Source: Chlamydiota bacterium
GTDB lineage: Bacteria; Chlamydiota; Chlamydiia; Chlamydiales; JAAKFR01
Length of the DNA stretch: 64,000 bases
Direction: 5' to 3'
Assembly (NCBI GenBank): GCA_021772455.1
Contig: JAJFLY010000006.1
Coordinates: forward strand, 112,377 to 176,376
A program made the position numbers and the translations under genes. Every line of letters begins with the position of its first letter. Position 1 is the stretch's first letter. Positions 1 through 13,211 of this stretch are shown one piece after another. The notes beneath the pieces are model-generated. The model was not told the origin of the DNA, did no database searches, and was given only the letters and a program-made list of their open reading frames with translations.

Positions 1-2
1 TT

Positions 3-188
3 CCCGAATTAATTTTAGACTGGGAACGCCCCGATCTATTGGGGCACATGATAAAAATTCTTAAAGATCAAAATGTAAAAGCTAAATTCAACACGATGCA
101 AAAAGCATATCTAACCTACCATTCTCTCCCTTCATACGCCAAAGAGCTCCAACAAATCCTTAAATATTCGCAAATTGGTTGTACTTGA
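3..188 (+). CDS. 3' end of a CDS starting upstream of the window (61 aa). The tail resembles the C-terminus of GT-B/GT4-type glycosyltransferases
   Basis: Frame 3 is open from the window edge to TGA 186-188 ([61 protein letters not shown]). It is absent from the ORF track because it has no in-window start. It overlaps the convergent SDR gene by 29 nt. Confidence 0.3.
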
Positions 189-1095
189 TAATCGAGTAGG
201 CATCAATAAGCTCACAAATTCCCTCGTCAAGACTTCTCGAAGGATGCCAGCCAAGCGCCTCTAACTTCTCATTGCTCACAATGTAATCGCGCTGATCTGG
301 GTCTTTCCCAATCGGTGCAGAGTGGATGTAAAGTTCAGGAACATAGCTTTTGATTTTTTCGCAAAGCTCTCGTTTGGATAAGTTTGCGTCTGAGAGCCCG
401 ACATTATAGCACTCACCGCGCATCTTATCGAAACTCTCGATTCCAAATAGAAAAGTGCGCGCCACATCTTGCACGTGAATATAGTTGCGTTTGAAGTGCT
501 CCTCAAAAAGGACGACACACCGATCGTGACACGCGCGGTAGGTGAAATCGTTAACAAGAAGATCTAAGCGCATGCGCGGCGAAACCCCAAAGACCGTTGC
601 CAAACGAAAACAAACGGCTTTTTTGGACTCCAAGAGTTTTTTTTCGATTGCAACCTTGAGCTTCCCATACTCGGAGACTGGGTTGAGGGGGCTCTTTTCT
701 GTACAAAAAGCATTTTTTTCTCCGACGCCATAACCACTGTTTGTGTTTGGAAAAAGAATTTGCTGCTCTCCATGGCAACACTCCAAAATCGATTCGACCG
801 CATCGTAGTTCACCATTTTGGCAAGAGCGGGATTCATATGACACGCTGGCGCGCCCACAAGCGCTGCAAGAGGGATGATGATGTCGTGCTCAGCAACCAG
901 TTTTTTGACCAATTCCTGATTGGTGACATCACCTTTGATAAAATGGAAATGGGGGTTCCCAAAACAGTTTAAAAGGGTCACTTGTCGATACATCAGATTA
1001 TCGAGGACGGTAACCGCATACCCTTTTTGCAATAAAAGAGGGCTTAAAACCGAGCCGATATAACCAGCGCCACCAGTGATTAAAACACGTCGCAT
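160..1095 (-). CDS. NAD-dependent sugar-nucleotide epimerase/dehydratase (extended SDR)
   Basis: 311 aa with Rossmann motif [10 protein letters not shown] at the N-terminus and YGKLK (YxxxK). It overlaps the upstream hddC-like gene by 16 nt, suggesting an operon. Confidence 0.8.
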
Positions 1096-1751
1096 AAGTA
1101 TCCTTGTGCTTGTAAGTAAGATTCTTTTGTTCCAATATCAATAAATTTTCCCGCTGAAGGGTAGGCAAAAACCTTTTTATTTAAAAGAGAAGGAAATGCC
1201 TCCTGTTCAAGGGAAAACGCTCCACATGGAAATGCATCAAGAAGATCTTGATGCATCACATAAACCCCTCCATTAATCCAACCGCGCTCGGATCCTTCTT
1301 CTTTTTCATGAAAGGCTGTGATGCGGGAGGACTCATCAAAGAAAATCGATCCATAGCGCGACACGTCATCCTCTTCACGACACGCAATCGTTAAATCGGC
1401 CTCTTTTTCTTGATGGAAGGCGATGAGTTTGTCTATTTCAATCCCAAAGTAGGAATCCCCATTCATCGCAAGCACAGCCGCACCCTTTGCAAGGGCAAGA
1501 GCTTGCTTTAGCGCGCCCCCTGTCCCTAGAGGGCTCTTCTCTTCAGAAATAAGAAGCTCGGGGTAGTGTGTTTTGATTTGCTCAGATTTGTACCCTACCG
1601 CTAAGATCACGCGCTCGGTATGCGGGCTAACTTGCGAGAGTAGGAGATCTAAAAAGGGTTTGCCGTTGATGGGGGCGAGAGGTTTTGGAACATCTGAGAC
1701 AGTATCTCGCAGTCGTTTTCCAAGTCCACCTGCTAGTATGATCGCGTCCAT
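1080..1751 (-). CDS. hddC: Sugar-1-phosphate nucleotidyltransferase, HddC-like (heptose-1-P guanylyltransferase family)
   Basis: 223 aa with N-terminal [13 protein letters not shown]...PKPL nucleotidyltransferase signature. Its start abuts the stop of the GHMP kinase gene at 1751. Confidence 0.65.
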
Positions 1752-11296: not shown

Positions 11297-11368
11297 AGAA
11301 CCCTCTATTTTTCCGCCGATAATAACAAGATTTGCAAATAATGTGATCACAAATTATATAAAGAGCAT

Positions 11369-12247
11369 ATGAAGGTCAAAAAGATACTTGTTACCGGCGG
11401 TGCCGGATTTATCGGATCCCATCTTTGCGAAGCTCTGCTTGCGCAGGGGCACCATGTAACATGCGTCGATAATTTCAATACTGGCTCGCATGAAAATATC
11501 GGCCATCTCAAGCCTAACCCCAACTTTAATGTCCTCTGCCATGACATCTGCTTCCCCTTCTACTCTGAGATAGATGAAATTTATAATCTTGCCAAAAGCT
11601 CCTCTCCCATCCAGGAGACAAAAACAAGTGTAGTAGGCGCCCTCCATATGCTTGAATTGGCCAAGCAGCTAAATGCTAAAATTTTACAAGCATCTACTAG
11701 TGAGATCTACGAAGATCCAAGTCCCCATTCCAAGATGGGCAAACAGTGTGCAGAAACCCTTTTTTTTGATTACCACCACCAGCATGGAGTCAAAATAAAA
11801 ATCGCTAGAATCTCCAATACCTACGGACCATACATGAATCCGAATGATGGGTGTGTGATCTCGCATCTTATCACCCAAGCTCTTCAAAATGCACCCCTTA
11901 CTGTACTTGGCGCTTGCGAGCAAACCGACTCTTTTTGCTATGTTTCTGATTTAGTTGAGGGATTGATCAGGTTGATGGATGCGCCCGATTCTGTTGTGGG
12001 ACCGCTCGATCTTGGAAATCCGATTGAATTAACCATGCACGCGCTTGCCAATAAAATTATTGAGCTAACAGACTCAAAATCTGAGCTTGTTTACGAAGAC
12101 CTTCCGCGCGATGACCCAAAACAAAGGAAGCCCGATATCACCCTCGCAACAGAGATGCTGAATTGGGAGCCACAGGTTCATATAAGCGATGGTTTGCAAA
12201 AAACGATCGACTATTTTGAGCATATCTGTTTAACTATCAGCGTTTAA
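11369..12247 (+). CDS. UDP-glucuronate decarboxylase (UXS)-like protein, apparently degenerate
   Basis: 292 aa with VTGGAGFIGSHL, STSEIY and NLGNP..DDPKQRKPDI blocks as in UXS. The segment carrying the catalytic Tyr (YDEGKR) is deleted and QTR is replaced by QTD. Confidence 0.6.
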   Translation: MKVKKILVTGGAGFIGSHLCEALLAQGHHVTCVDNFNTGSHENIGHLKPNPNFNVLCHDICFPFYSEIDEIYNLAKSSSPIQETKTSVVGALHMLELAKQLNAKILQASTSEIYEDPSPHSKMGKQCAETLFFDYHHQHGVKIKIARISNTYGPYMNPNDGCVISHLITQALQNAPLTVLGACEQTDSFCYVSDLVEGLIRLMDAPDSVVGPLDLGNPIELTMHALANKIIELTDSKSELVYEDLPRDDPKQRKPDITLATEMLNWEPQVHISDGLQKTIDYFEHICLTISV

Positions 12248-12248
12248 A

Positions 12249-13211
12249 ATGAAAACTATTCTTGTAACAGGTGCCGCAGGATTTATCGGCTTCCACACAG
12301 CGCAAGCTCTCGCCAAGCGAGGAGATCGTGTGGTTGGTCTCGATAATTTTAATGGCTATTATTCCCCTGCTTTAAAAAGAAAGCGCGCATTAATTCTTAA
12401 GGAAAAAGGAATTGAGGTTGTCGAGACCGATTTAAATGACCACGCCACCCTACGCGCCCTTTTTGAAACCTATCCATTCACCGATGTTTTGAACTTAGCG
12501 GCCCAAGCTGGCGTGCGCTACGCTCGTAAAAACCCACAAGCCTATCTATCTAGCAACATCGATGGCTTTCTCTCACTATTAGAGATCCTCCGCCACTACC
12601 CAGAGGTCAAACTTACATACGCCTCCTCCTCATCTGTCTACGGAAGGAACGAGAAAATCCCTTTTTCGGTCGACGACCCCACCGACCAACCAGCGAATCT
12701 CTATGCCGCGACCAAAAAAGCAAACGAACTGATGGCCTATAGCTACCACCATCTCTATGGGACGCGCATGACAGGCTTGCGCTTTTTTACTGTCTACGGT
12801 CCATGGGGACGCCCTGACATGGCCTATTATTCTTTTGCAGAAGCGATTCTTAGCGGAAAGCCTATCCACCTCTTTAATGAGGGAAAAATGCAGCGCGATT
12901 TCACCTACATCGACGATGTTGTCCGGGGAACAATTGCAGCGATCGATTATCCAGGCTCCTACGAGCTCTTTAATTTAGGGAATAACCGCCCTGTAGAGCT
13001 TCTAGAGTTTGTTTCTATCCTAGAAAAATTACTGGGCAGAGAAGCGGTTAAAGTCTTCGAAGGACCGAGTGCAGGAGAGGTCGAAACAACCTACGCTGAT
13101 ATTACAAGTTCTTGTGAAAAACTTGGCTATGCCCCCTCGACAAATCTCGAAGAGGGGCTAGCTCACTTTGTTTCTTGGTACCAAGGAGAAAAACAATGTA
13201 CACCAATATAG
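12249..13211 (+). CDS. UDP-glucuronate 4-epimerase (NAD-dependent SDR)
   Basis: 320 aa with VTGAAGFIGFH, YAATKKANE (YxxxK) and FFTVYGPWGRPDMA, typical of GlcA 4-epimerases. Confidence 0.75.
   Translation: MKTILVTGAAGFIGFHTAQALAKRGDRVVGLDNFNGYYSPALKRKRALILKEKGIEVVETDLNDHATLRALFETYPFTDVLNLAAQAGVRYARKNPQAYLSSNIDGFLSLLEILRHYPEVKLTYASSSSVYGRNEKIPFSVDDPTDQPANLYAATKKANELMAYSYHHLYGTRMTGLRFFTVYGPWGRPDMAYYSFAEAILSGKPIHLFNEGKMQRDFTYIDDVVRGTIAAIDYPGSYELFNLGNNRPVELLEFVSILEKLLGREAVKVFEGPSAGEVETTYADITSSCEKLGYAPSTNLEEGLAHFVSWYQGEKQCTPI

Follow-up and report, generated by a model that had tools for sequence, protein, structure and literature searches.

A surface-glycan locus of an environmental chlamydia with a conserved gene module predicted to make a methyl-branched GDP-heptose

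Introduction

What kind of glycan, if any, do chlamydiae outside the Chlamydiaceae place on their surface? The Chlamydiaceae themselves have a rough lipooligosaccharide (LOS) limited to 3-deoxy-D-manno-oct-2-ulosonic acid (Kdo), with no O-chain or capsule. The question is raised by the first 13 211 positions of a 64 000-nucleotide stretch of contig JAJFLY010000006.1 from a Chlamydiota bacterium (the whole stretch is referred to hereafter as the window). Open reading frame (ORF) listing and Pfam scans showed positions 1-13211 to hold 12 complete genes, with a further gene fragment at the edge; 11 of the complete genes are of families concerned with sugar nucleotides or glycan assembly, the sole exception encoding a DUF4116 repeat protein. 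An earlier note made from the DNA letters had described this region as an O-antigen- or capsule-type locus and as an under-described trait for the group. Its gene list was reproduced at the same positions, and the leading chlamydial pangenome paper contains no mention of lipopolysaccharide (LPS), polysaccharide, heptose or glycan, wider literature searches being equally empty.

We propose, with a probability of roughly 0.6, that this is a surface-glycan locus in which a conserved six-gene module would lead to GDP-3-C-methyl-heptose and a more variable layer of genes would contribute further residues, the glycan being exported by an ATP-binding cassette (ABC) transporter and attached or polymerised by a Wzy_C-family protein. 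The enzymes of the module, its distribution, and the genes for export, attachment and variable decoration are considered in turn below, before the proposal is weighed against its rivals.

The heptose module and its enzymes

The enzyme that anchors this reading is encoded at 160-1095 on the minus strand and is a short-chain dehydrogenase/reductase (SDR) of the Epimerase family. Its sequence aligned without gaps over 309 residues with the protein of PDB entries 6VO6/6VO8, at 62.8% identity (E 1.7e-134). The 6VO6 chain sequence belongs to a 439-member cluster of Campylobacter jejuni proteins and is presumably Cj1427. Cj1427 is the C. jejuni heptose C4-dehydrogenase, in which tightly bound NADH is reoxidised by alpha-ketoglutarate with formation of L-2-hydroxyglutarate (PMC10680097). 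Judged by this full-length, high-identity alignment, the window protein matches the heptose C4-dehydrogenase of C. jejuni at the grade of an ortholog, and the same alpha-ketoglutarate ping-pong chemistry is predicted for it. The GDP-heptose route suggested in the earlier note becomes much firmer because the SDR adjacent to the candidate kinase and transferase genes is matched at this grade, and it is because the dehydrogenase anchors them that the kinase, the guanylyltransferase and the other neighbours are read here as heptose genes.

The two genes preceding the dehydrogenase gene on the same strand encode a putative kinase and a putative guanylyltransferase. The former (1751-2743, minus strand) is an HddA-like GHMP kinase, that is, a candidate D-glycero-D-manno-heptose 7-phosphate 1-kinase, with the Pfam domains GHMP_kinases_N and GHMP_kinases_C; its best NCBIfam model was HddA (NF049969), at 158 bits against an equivalog cut-off of 600, and its closest solved homologues were WcbL (4USM/4USK) and C. 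jejuni HddA (4N3O), with E values of 1e-42 to 1e-40. The latter (1080-1751, minus strand; Pfam NTP_transferase) is HddC-like, a candidate heptose-1-phosphate guanylyltransferase for which HddC (NF049965) was the best model (153 bits, cut-off 300) and Yersinia HddC (5XHW/6JQ8, E 1e-33) the closest structure. The guanylyltransferase gene overlaps both of its neighbours in an operon-like arrangement running from 2743 to 160 on the minus strand. NCBIfam made no equivalog-level call for the kinase, the guanylyltransferase, or the reductase, GT61 and Wzy_C genes described below.

Divergent from this operon, across a gap of 38 bp (39 bp in the closest relative, locus L084), lies a methyltransferase gene at 2782-3975 on the plus strand. 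The domains Methyltransf_13 (70 bits, cut-off 31), Methyltransf_23 and Methyltransf_14 (152 bits, cut-off 23.5) together span the full length of its product, residues 3-393 of which matched MtmC (4RV9, E 3e-68) and TcaB9 (3NDI, E 5e-53). The protein has a CxxC...CxxC zinc ribbon (C3/C6/C45/C48) and a YHEH motif; the significance of the four-cysteine and YxEH motifs comes from work on TcaB9. By its domains and motifs it classes as a TylC3/TcaB9/MtmC-type nucleoside diphosphate (NDP)-4-keto-sugar 3-C-methyltransferase, and methylation of the proposed GDP-heptose substrate at C3 is predicted. The gene clusters with the kinase operon in 34 chlamydial loci.

The partner of the C-methyltransferase would be the SDR encoded at 7103-8050 on the plus strand, whose best PDB match was Escherichia coli Fcl (1BSV, E 2e-27). 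Fcl Ser107, Cys109, Tyr136, Lys140 and His179 each have a conserved equivalent in the alignment (5/5), and the NCBIfam Fcl model (cut-off 500) gave 125 bits. Its sequence thus marks it as a member of the Fcl family by mechanism rather than as an Fcl equivalog, and a putative Fcl-type (GDP-fucose-synthase-like) epimerase and C4-reductase. In L084 and in another relative, L002, the C-methyltransferase and reductase genes abut or overlap, and every mapped relative that has both keeps them side by side; in the window the DUF4116 and GT61 genes split them.

At the window edge, 61 codons of a further gene (3-188, plus strand) encode a C-terminus that the earlier note had called glycosyltransferase-like, the remainder of the gene lying upstream. 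The fragment matches the C-termini of proteins in 15 loci, members of a family of about 340-370 amino acids with no Pfam match (our cluster 5). An AlphaFold model of one relative (P0121, pLDDT 93) had PimA (2GEJ, TM 0.71) as its best PDB fold, followed by Gtf3/GtfC, BshA and WaaG, and PimA is GDP-mannose-dependent. On this model the fragment is the end of a predicted GT-B (GT4-like) glycosyltransferase, in keeping with the earlier call. In 20 chlamydial loci the gene for this protein is the immediate neighbour of the one for the dehydrogenase.

From the observed families, their conservation and their gene order, we infer the following order of substrates and identity of the sugar. Heptose 7-phosphate, made by a GmhA encoded elsewhere, would be phosphorylated at C1 by the HddA-like kinase to the 1,7-bisphosphate; a GmhB, also encoded elsewhere, would strip the 7-phosphate to leave heptose 1-phosphate, and the HddC-like enzyme would convert this to GDP-heptose. 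The Cj1427-type dehydrogenase would then oxidise C4 without dehydration to yield GDP-4-keto-heptose, alpha-ketoglutarate reoxidising the bound NADH. Transfer of a methyl group onto C3 of the 4-keto intermediate by the TylC3/TcaB9-type enzyme would give GDP-3-C-methyl-4-keto-heptose, and epimerisation at C5, proposed because this is the sole position left, together with reduction at C4 by the Fcl-type enzyme, would complete GDP-3-C-methyl-heptose. The neighbouring Pfam-less GT-B enzyme is the likely transferase for the methyl-heptose. Six related loci encode an SIS protein with a weak resemblance to GmhA (80 bits, cut-off 209). We did not find GDP-3-C-methyl-heptose described in the literature, and full-text literature searches returned no paper pairing a C-methyltransferase with GDP-heptose; papers containing both '3-C-methyl' and 'heptose' were, by their titles and abstracts, concerned with Coxiella virenose or other sugars.

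Conservation of the module

Relatives were collected with the 160-1095 protein as query, taking one genome per GTDB species, and 80 genome loci (numbered with the prefix L) were compared locally. The 49 top-ranked matches had 62-80% identity, after which identity dropped to 54-59%. Thirty-three of these 49 loci are labelled Chlamydiota (Simkaniaceae, Parachlamydiales, Anoxychlamydiales) and 12 carry no label beyond 'uncultured bacterium'; no named cultured chlamydia and no Chlamydia species was among the 49 matches. The kinase was present in 47 of the 49 loci, the guanylyltransferase in 38, the C-methyltransferase in 34, the Fcl-like reductase in 32 and the Pfam-less GT-B protein of about 360 amino acids in 20. 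The order of the module genes recurs among the top loci, the module itself being found in some 45 chlamydial genomes, and metagenome contigs of the Joint Genome Institute (JGI) repeat the pattern. In a neighbour-joining tree the chlamydial dehydrogenases formed one clade, with sequences from Campylobacter, Helicobacter and some metagenome-assembled genomes (MAGs) of Nitrospirae and Bacillota as its sister group. The six-gene core is apparently a conserved, ancestral module of environmental chlamydiae and is not confined to a single organism.

A gene for L-2-hydroxyglutarate oxidase (LhgO; equivalog NF008726, 540 bits, cut-off 299) lies near the module in 13 chlamydial loci, and most of those loci that were mapped have it immediately next to the reductase gene; carriers include L008, L009, L011, L012, L015, L016, L018, L021 and L028. 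The window has no LhgO gene. The linkage fits a role in which LhgO would recycle the L-2-hydroxyglutarate released by a Cj1427-type dehydrogenase, and we did not find it described in the literature.

Genes for the dehydrogenase, the 3-C-methyltransferase and the Fcl-like reductase also occur together outside the Chlamydiota, in L045 (labelled Nitrospirae), L067 (Bdellovibrionales) and L076 (Saccharibacteria), L045 additionally carrying the GT-B gene. Because of this trio the predicted methyl-heptose route is not strictly chlamydial. The flanks of three other loci (L011, L012 and L024) hold a second Cj1427-like paralogue with HldE-like (NCBIfam) and SIS/GmhA-like (Pfam and NCBIfam) genes and, as judged by eye only, transketolase-like, thiamine pyrophosphate-enzyme-like and methyltransferase-like genes. 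From these genes, the three loci would seem to have a further modified-sugar pathway that differs from the first.

Export and attachment

An exact 41-nt search of JGI metagenomes gave no match to the window, the best relative there being a 2.4-kb contig, and L084 was used as a proxy for the sequence upstream. Protein by protein, L084 is 69-85% identical to the window. Its genes run in the order ugd, cmcI, zf-MYND, Wzy_C, reductase and methyltransferase, followed by the divergent kinase, transferase, dehydrogenase and GT-B genes and a gene for a 607-amino-acid fused ABC exporter, which sits two genes past the position of the window edge. The earlier expectation that the locus continues upstream is borne out in L084, where the rest of the GT-B gene and the exporter gene directly adjoin. 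The exporter scored under the NCBIfam cut-offs for HepA (408 against 725) and MsbA (331 against 602), with PglK lower. In 10 further chlamydial loci the module is likewise joined by ABC genes, and a HepA/MsbA/PglK-like ABC exporter would be expected just upstream of the window.

Within the window itself, most ORFs of at least 120 amino acids were scanned across the 64 kb, and none encoded Wzx, Wzm/Wzt, a fused ABC exporter, a priming transferase, GmhA or GmhB, in agreement with the earlier remark that no Wzx or ABC exporter is visible. Two candidates for an export role were discarded. A pair of genes for proteins of 627-639 amino acids at 42342-46138 had been considered as ABC half-transporters and proved to encode RsbU-like HAMP-SpoIIE phosphatases, arranged as tandem paralogues, and a major facilitator superfamily gene at 35836-37605 is LplT/acyltransferase-like.

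The Wzy_C-family protein (7917-9239, minus strand; Pfam Wzy_C, 45 bits, cut-off 32) is a polytopic membrane protein with at least 122 homologues, of which those bearing a taxon name are nearly all chlamydial MAG proteins. Its AlphaFold model (pLDDT 91) had WaaL (7TPG, E 3e-6, TM 0.52-0.56) as the sole PDB fold match under E 0.001 in a Foldseek search, and no Wzy polymerase was among the PDB fold matches. A WaaL-like ligase is the favoured candidate, although the fold search itself does not tell ligase from polymerase. The Pfam families Polysacc_synt, Wzz, Bac_transf and Glycos_transf_4 gave no hit in the window or L084, a result that does not point to a Wzx/Wzy pathway. The most economical reading would be a route by ABC flippase and WaaL as in Helicobacter pylori: the ABC exporter would translocate the glycan before the Wzy_C step, and the WaaL-like protein, at the periplasmic face, would join it to lipid A-core or polymerise it. 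As regards the acceptor and the length of the product we infer no more than this; the polymer, O-antigen or capsule of the earlier note goes beyond a lone WaaL-like Wzy_C protein, which a short-glycan ligase fits equally well. The methylation proposed in the same note is probably a C-3 branch on the heptose with a separate O-methylation.

The 3' ends of the Fcl-like gene (plus strand) and the Wzy_C gene (minus strand) form a convergent overlap of 134 nt, at 7917-8050, and a similar overlap is retained at 3972-4105 of L084 and 16899-17014 of L002. Between cmcI and the Wzy_C gene, three relatives have a small gene of opposite orientation encoding the eukaryote-type domain zf-MYND (L082, 9447-9860; L083, 1247-1660; L084, 2237-2668), which is absent from the window.

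Variable genes of the locus

The second layer of the proposed glycan would draw on uronic acids. UDP-glucose 6-dehydrogenase (Ugd; 9950-11296, minus strand), with three UDPG_MGDP_dh Pfam domains, scored 436 bits with the NDP-sugar dehydrogenase model TIGR03026, above the cut-off of 190, and 521 bits with TuaD, and is 85-87% identical to its orthologues in L084 and L082. The predicted UDP-glucuronate 4-epimerase at 12249-13211 (plus strand) was closest in the PDB to a Klebsiella protein (5U4Q, E 4e-96) and to the Bacillus cereus UDP-glucuronic acid (UDP-GlcA) 4-epimerase (6ZL6, E 6e-51), and is 83% identical to the L082 orthologue. The supply of UDP-GlcA and UDP-galacturonic acid (UDP-GalA) claimed for the locus from the outset agrees with these matches. 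In the proposed scheme Ugd and the epimerase would provide these two sugar nucleotides, the CmcI-type enzyme would carry out an O-methylation, and the GT61 enzyme would add a further residue.

The CmcI/rhamnosyl-O-methyltransferase-family gene (9232-9966, minus strand; Pfam RMNT_CmcI, 202 bits) shares 17 nt with ugd and 8 nt with the Wzy_C gene, again an operon-like arrangement, within a unit running from 11296 to 7917 on the minus strand. The starts of cmcI (9966) and ugd (11296) follow comparison with L084 and are not those of the longest ORFs. The sub-cluster of ugd, cmcI, Wzy_C and epimerase genes was found only in closer relatives (L002, L004, L013, L024, L082 and L084).

A third overlapping unit, from 11369 to 13211 on the plus strand, begins with a degenerate gene for a UDP-glucuronate decarboxylase (UXS-like; 11369-12247, plus strand). 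The match of its product to human UXS1 (E 6e-77) falls into two pieces. Compared with chlamydial orthologues the gene lacks stretches of 7 and 18 residues, both deleted in frame (25 lost, with the frame still open), and the larger deletion removes the catalytic Tyr of the YDEGK motif and 17 neighbours, so that the Thr/Ser-Tyr-Lys centre is not intact; several conserved residues are substituted as well. Orthologues are intact in L002, L024, L038 and L082 (319 amino acids in the last). The gene is probably inactive and looks like early gene decay inside an otherwise intact locus. The gene calls of the earlier note therefore stand as to family and need amending in their details: the cmcI and ugd starts are shifted, the UXS-like gene is degenerate with its catalytic Tyr deleted, and the HddA, HddC and Fcl assignments fall below the NCBI equivalog cut-offs. 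Downstream, a 535-amino-acid ORF at 13175-14782, with only a weak C-terminal helix-turn-helix match and a TTG start as called, extends 37 nt into the end of the epimerase gene in that form, and unrelated genes occupy this position in relatives (L082).

Two genes of the locus, those for GT61 and DUF4116, had no relative in any of 165 fetched related loci. The GT61/DUF563 glycosyltransferase (5909-7060, minus strand; Pfam Glyco_transf_61, 91 bits) appears specific to this strain. The DUF4116 gene (4180-5904, plus strand), a non-glycan insertion encoding a protein of 574 amino acids with 11 repeats, has a GC content of 0.415 and a GC3 of 0.344 as against 0.459 for the window. It was possibly acquired recently and perhaps encodes an effector. 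A perfect TTGACA-18-TATAAT sigma-70-type match lies ahead of it at 4112-4141; promoter and terminator scans found sites in numbers no higher than in shuffled sequence.

Chromosomal context

That the DNA belongs to the Chlamydiota, as the earlier note supposed, follows from marker genes and gene order on the same contig. The window encodes a UPF0242 and PAS_12 protein and the pair of RsbU-like genes mentioned above. In L010, the Chlamydiae MAG KR126_chlam_2 from marine sediment, the module keeps the neighbours that it has in the window, namely rpoD, mreC, nnr and the genes for UPF0242, an SDF transporter and an aminotransferase, and the RpoD proteins of the two are 84% identical. The ENA contig L082 has mreC, nnr, epimerase, UXS, ugd, cmcI and Wzy_C genes in common with the window, at 64-87% identity, and relatives bearing a taxon name are almost all chlamydial. 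Because of these chlamydial markers, the shared gene order and a GC content (0.44-0.49 for the locus, 0.459 for the window) equal to that of the window, the locus is placed on the native chromosome of an environmental, non-Chlamydiaceae member of the phylum. The idea that the core is a horizontally transferred island was rejected on GC, gene order and the single chlamydial clade of dehydrogenases, and was kept for the DUF4116 gene only.

Elsewhere the window holds, besides the two RsbU-like phosphatase genes, a sigma-54 gene (61855-63204) and a small gene for an extracytoplasmic function-type sigma factor (49253-49774), together giving a regulatory gene set richer than that of Chlamydiaceae. 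At 38340-42339 an 868-amino-acid ORF with no Pfam match lies beside one of 450 amino acids with a marginal porin match, both possible outer-membrane proteins.

Discussion

Several results weigh against the proposed methyl-heptose locus. The scores of the HddA-, HddC- and Fcl-like proteins are far under the NCBI equivalog cut-offs, gmhA and gmhB were absent from the window ORFs scanned, and neither the window nor L084 yielded a priming transferase, Wzx or Wzz. The decay of the UXS-like gene shows that the locus has undergone some erosion. The name Cj1427 for entry 6VO6 is our assumption, backed by the C. jejuni cluster match, and literature searches on the code 6VO6 and the annotation 'dehydratease' gave no link to Cj1427. 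To our knowledge no characterised C-methyltransferase accepts a GDP-heptose, the solved relatives using dTDP-hexoses. In four chlamydial loci a predicted Gmd, recognised by eye and not by a model scan, lies one or two genes from the methyltransferase and reductase pair; because of this proximity the pair could use GDP-4-keto-6-deoxymannose in those four genomes, and a 6-deoxyhexose product in some lineages is possible.

A rather unlikely alternative keeps the same enzymes and dispenses with an O-antigen or capsule polymer: the sugars would decorate the LOS core by a few residues, or the Wzy_C protein would act as a PglL-type oligosaccharyltransferase in protein O-glycosylation. The presence of one Wzy_C-family gene, with Wzx, Wzz, Wza and Wzm/Wzt missing from both the window and L084, would suit such a system, as would the moderate match of the Wzy_C model to WaaL (TM 0.52-0.56), the small number of glycosyltransferases (GT-B and GT61) and the fact that related loci often hold genes characteristic of core synthesis, for a GT9 heptosyltransferase and HldE-like proteins. 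Yet several additional GT2 and GT4 genes are present in related loci along with ManC and an ABC exporter, more than a single core decoration would need, and the tools used do not tell PglL-type from WaaL-type proteins.

The substrate of the methyl branch is the matter of another proposal, in which the C-methyltransferase and reductase would act on GDP-4-keto-6-deoxymannose to give a 6-deoxy-3-C-methyl-hexose resembling virenose or evalose, leaving the Cj1427-like enzyme to feed a separate heptose epimer. The by-eye Gmd genes referred to above stand one or two genes from a block of LhgO, reductase and methyltransferase genes in L015, L016, L018 and L028, Fcl-type enzymes classically take 6-deoxy substrates, and the virenose pathway proposed for Coxiella likewise uses GDP-mannose, Gmd, Fcl and C3 methylation (PMC3204966). 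However, no Gmd lies close by in the window, in L084, L002 or L010, or in most other loci, the pair accompanies the kinase-transferase-dehydrogenase operon in 32-34 loci and is usually divergently adjacent to it, and if the partner reductase were taken away the 4-keto product of the Cj1427 step would be left at a dead end in the window. We regard this hexose route as improbable. Still more so, to the point of being very improbable, is the idea of a decaying relic, recent import or assembly contaminant that contributes nothing to the chlamydial surface. The missing catalytic Tyr of the UXS-like protein, the foreign-looking DUF4116 gene inserted with GT61 into the middle of the module and the fact that the exact dehydrogenase sequence matched only a 1-kb read-assembly contig could be cited for it, but 11 of the 12 complete genes are full length against their orthologues, the residues and motifs checked in the reductase and C-methyltransferase are intact, GC equals the genome average, the DNA is contiguous with chlamydial markers, gene order is common with distant chlamydial MAGs, and the chlamydial dehydrogenases form one clade.

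On the preferred reading, a locus for a surface glycan with a 3-C-methyl-heptose, every component belongs to a family already known, as does the object as a whole, a surface-glycan locus. New are the combination of a Cj1427-type oxidation with a 3-C-methyltransferase, the LhgO linkage, and the phylum-wide conservation in environmental chlamydiae versus absence from Chlamydiaceae among the matches. The occurrence of the module in genomes labelled Simkaniaceae, Parachlamydiales and Anoxychlamydiales indicates that chlamydiae across the wider phylum put resources into an elaborate surface glycan, which could affect uptake by amoebae or other hosts, resistance outside the host, and antigenicity. 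A bolder and somewhat doubtful extension is that most environmental chlamydiae display an undescribed 3-C-methyl-heptose, made by an antibiotic-type C-methyltransferase grafted on a Campylobacter-type route with LhgO recycling, as an ancestral module that was lost toward the Chlamydiaceae. The locus yields a testable prediction in its five-enzyme route to a methyl-branched heptose, and the LhgO linkage offers a genomic rationale for the alpha-ketoglutarate supply to Cj1427-type dehydrogenases in vivo. Such a pathway, based here on annotation-level reasoning, would moderately surprise chlamydia specialists and be of use to carbohydrate enzymologists.

Among known systems, the heptose pathway of the C. 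jejuni capsule (GmhA, HddA, GmhB, HddC, Cj1427, the Cj1430 epimerase and the Cj1428 reductase) has the same trio of kinase, guanylyltransferase and C4-dehydrogenase, and in both cases a GDP-linked 4-keto-heptose would be finished by an Fcl-family reductase. Unlike C. jejuni, the window has no cupin-type C3/C5 epimerase and has a 3-C-methyltransferase inserted, with a reductase that keeps the Fcl epimerase residues; LhgO is linked in many relatives of the window, gmhA and gmhB lie outside the cluster, and there are no KpsMT capsule export genes. The 6-deoxy-heptose pathway of Burkholderia pseudomallei and Yersinia pseudotuberculosis (WcbL/HddA, WcbM/HddC, DmhA, DmhB) contains the enzymes of solved structure closest to the kinase and guanylyltransferase, but proceeds through the 4,6-dehydratase DmhA, whereas the window enzyme is of the non-dehydrating Cj1427 type. 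TylC3, TcaB9 and MtmC have the same three-domain build of zinc ribbon, S-adenosylmethionine-binding and C-terminal domains as the C-methyltransferase of the window; they act on dTDP-hexoses in actinomycete secondary metabolism, while the partners of the window enzyme imply a predicted GDP-heptose substrate. For export, H. pylori Wzk and WaaL combine a fused ABC exporter of transmembrane and nucleotide-binding domains with a single WaaL-like Wzy_C protein and no Wzx, Wzy or Wzz, as here, with the differences that the exporter is seen in relatives only, that the models it fits best are those of HepA and MsbA, ahead of PglK, and that no WecA-type priming enzyme was identified. The nearest described chemistry is that proposed for virenose, 6-deoxy-3-C-methyl-D-gulose, in the phase I LPS of Coxiella burnetii, by way of GDP-mannose, Gmd, Fcl and C3 methylation (PMC3204966). 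There too an intracellular bacterium would start from a GDP-sugar, introduce a methyl branch at C3 with the aid of an Fcl-type enzyme and display the product on LPS; Coxiella would do so through the 4,6-dehydratase Gmd to a 6-deoxyhexose, whereas the non-dehydrating heptose dehydrogenase of the window would leave a product that keeps its C6 hydroxyl group and C7.

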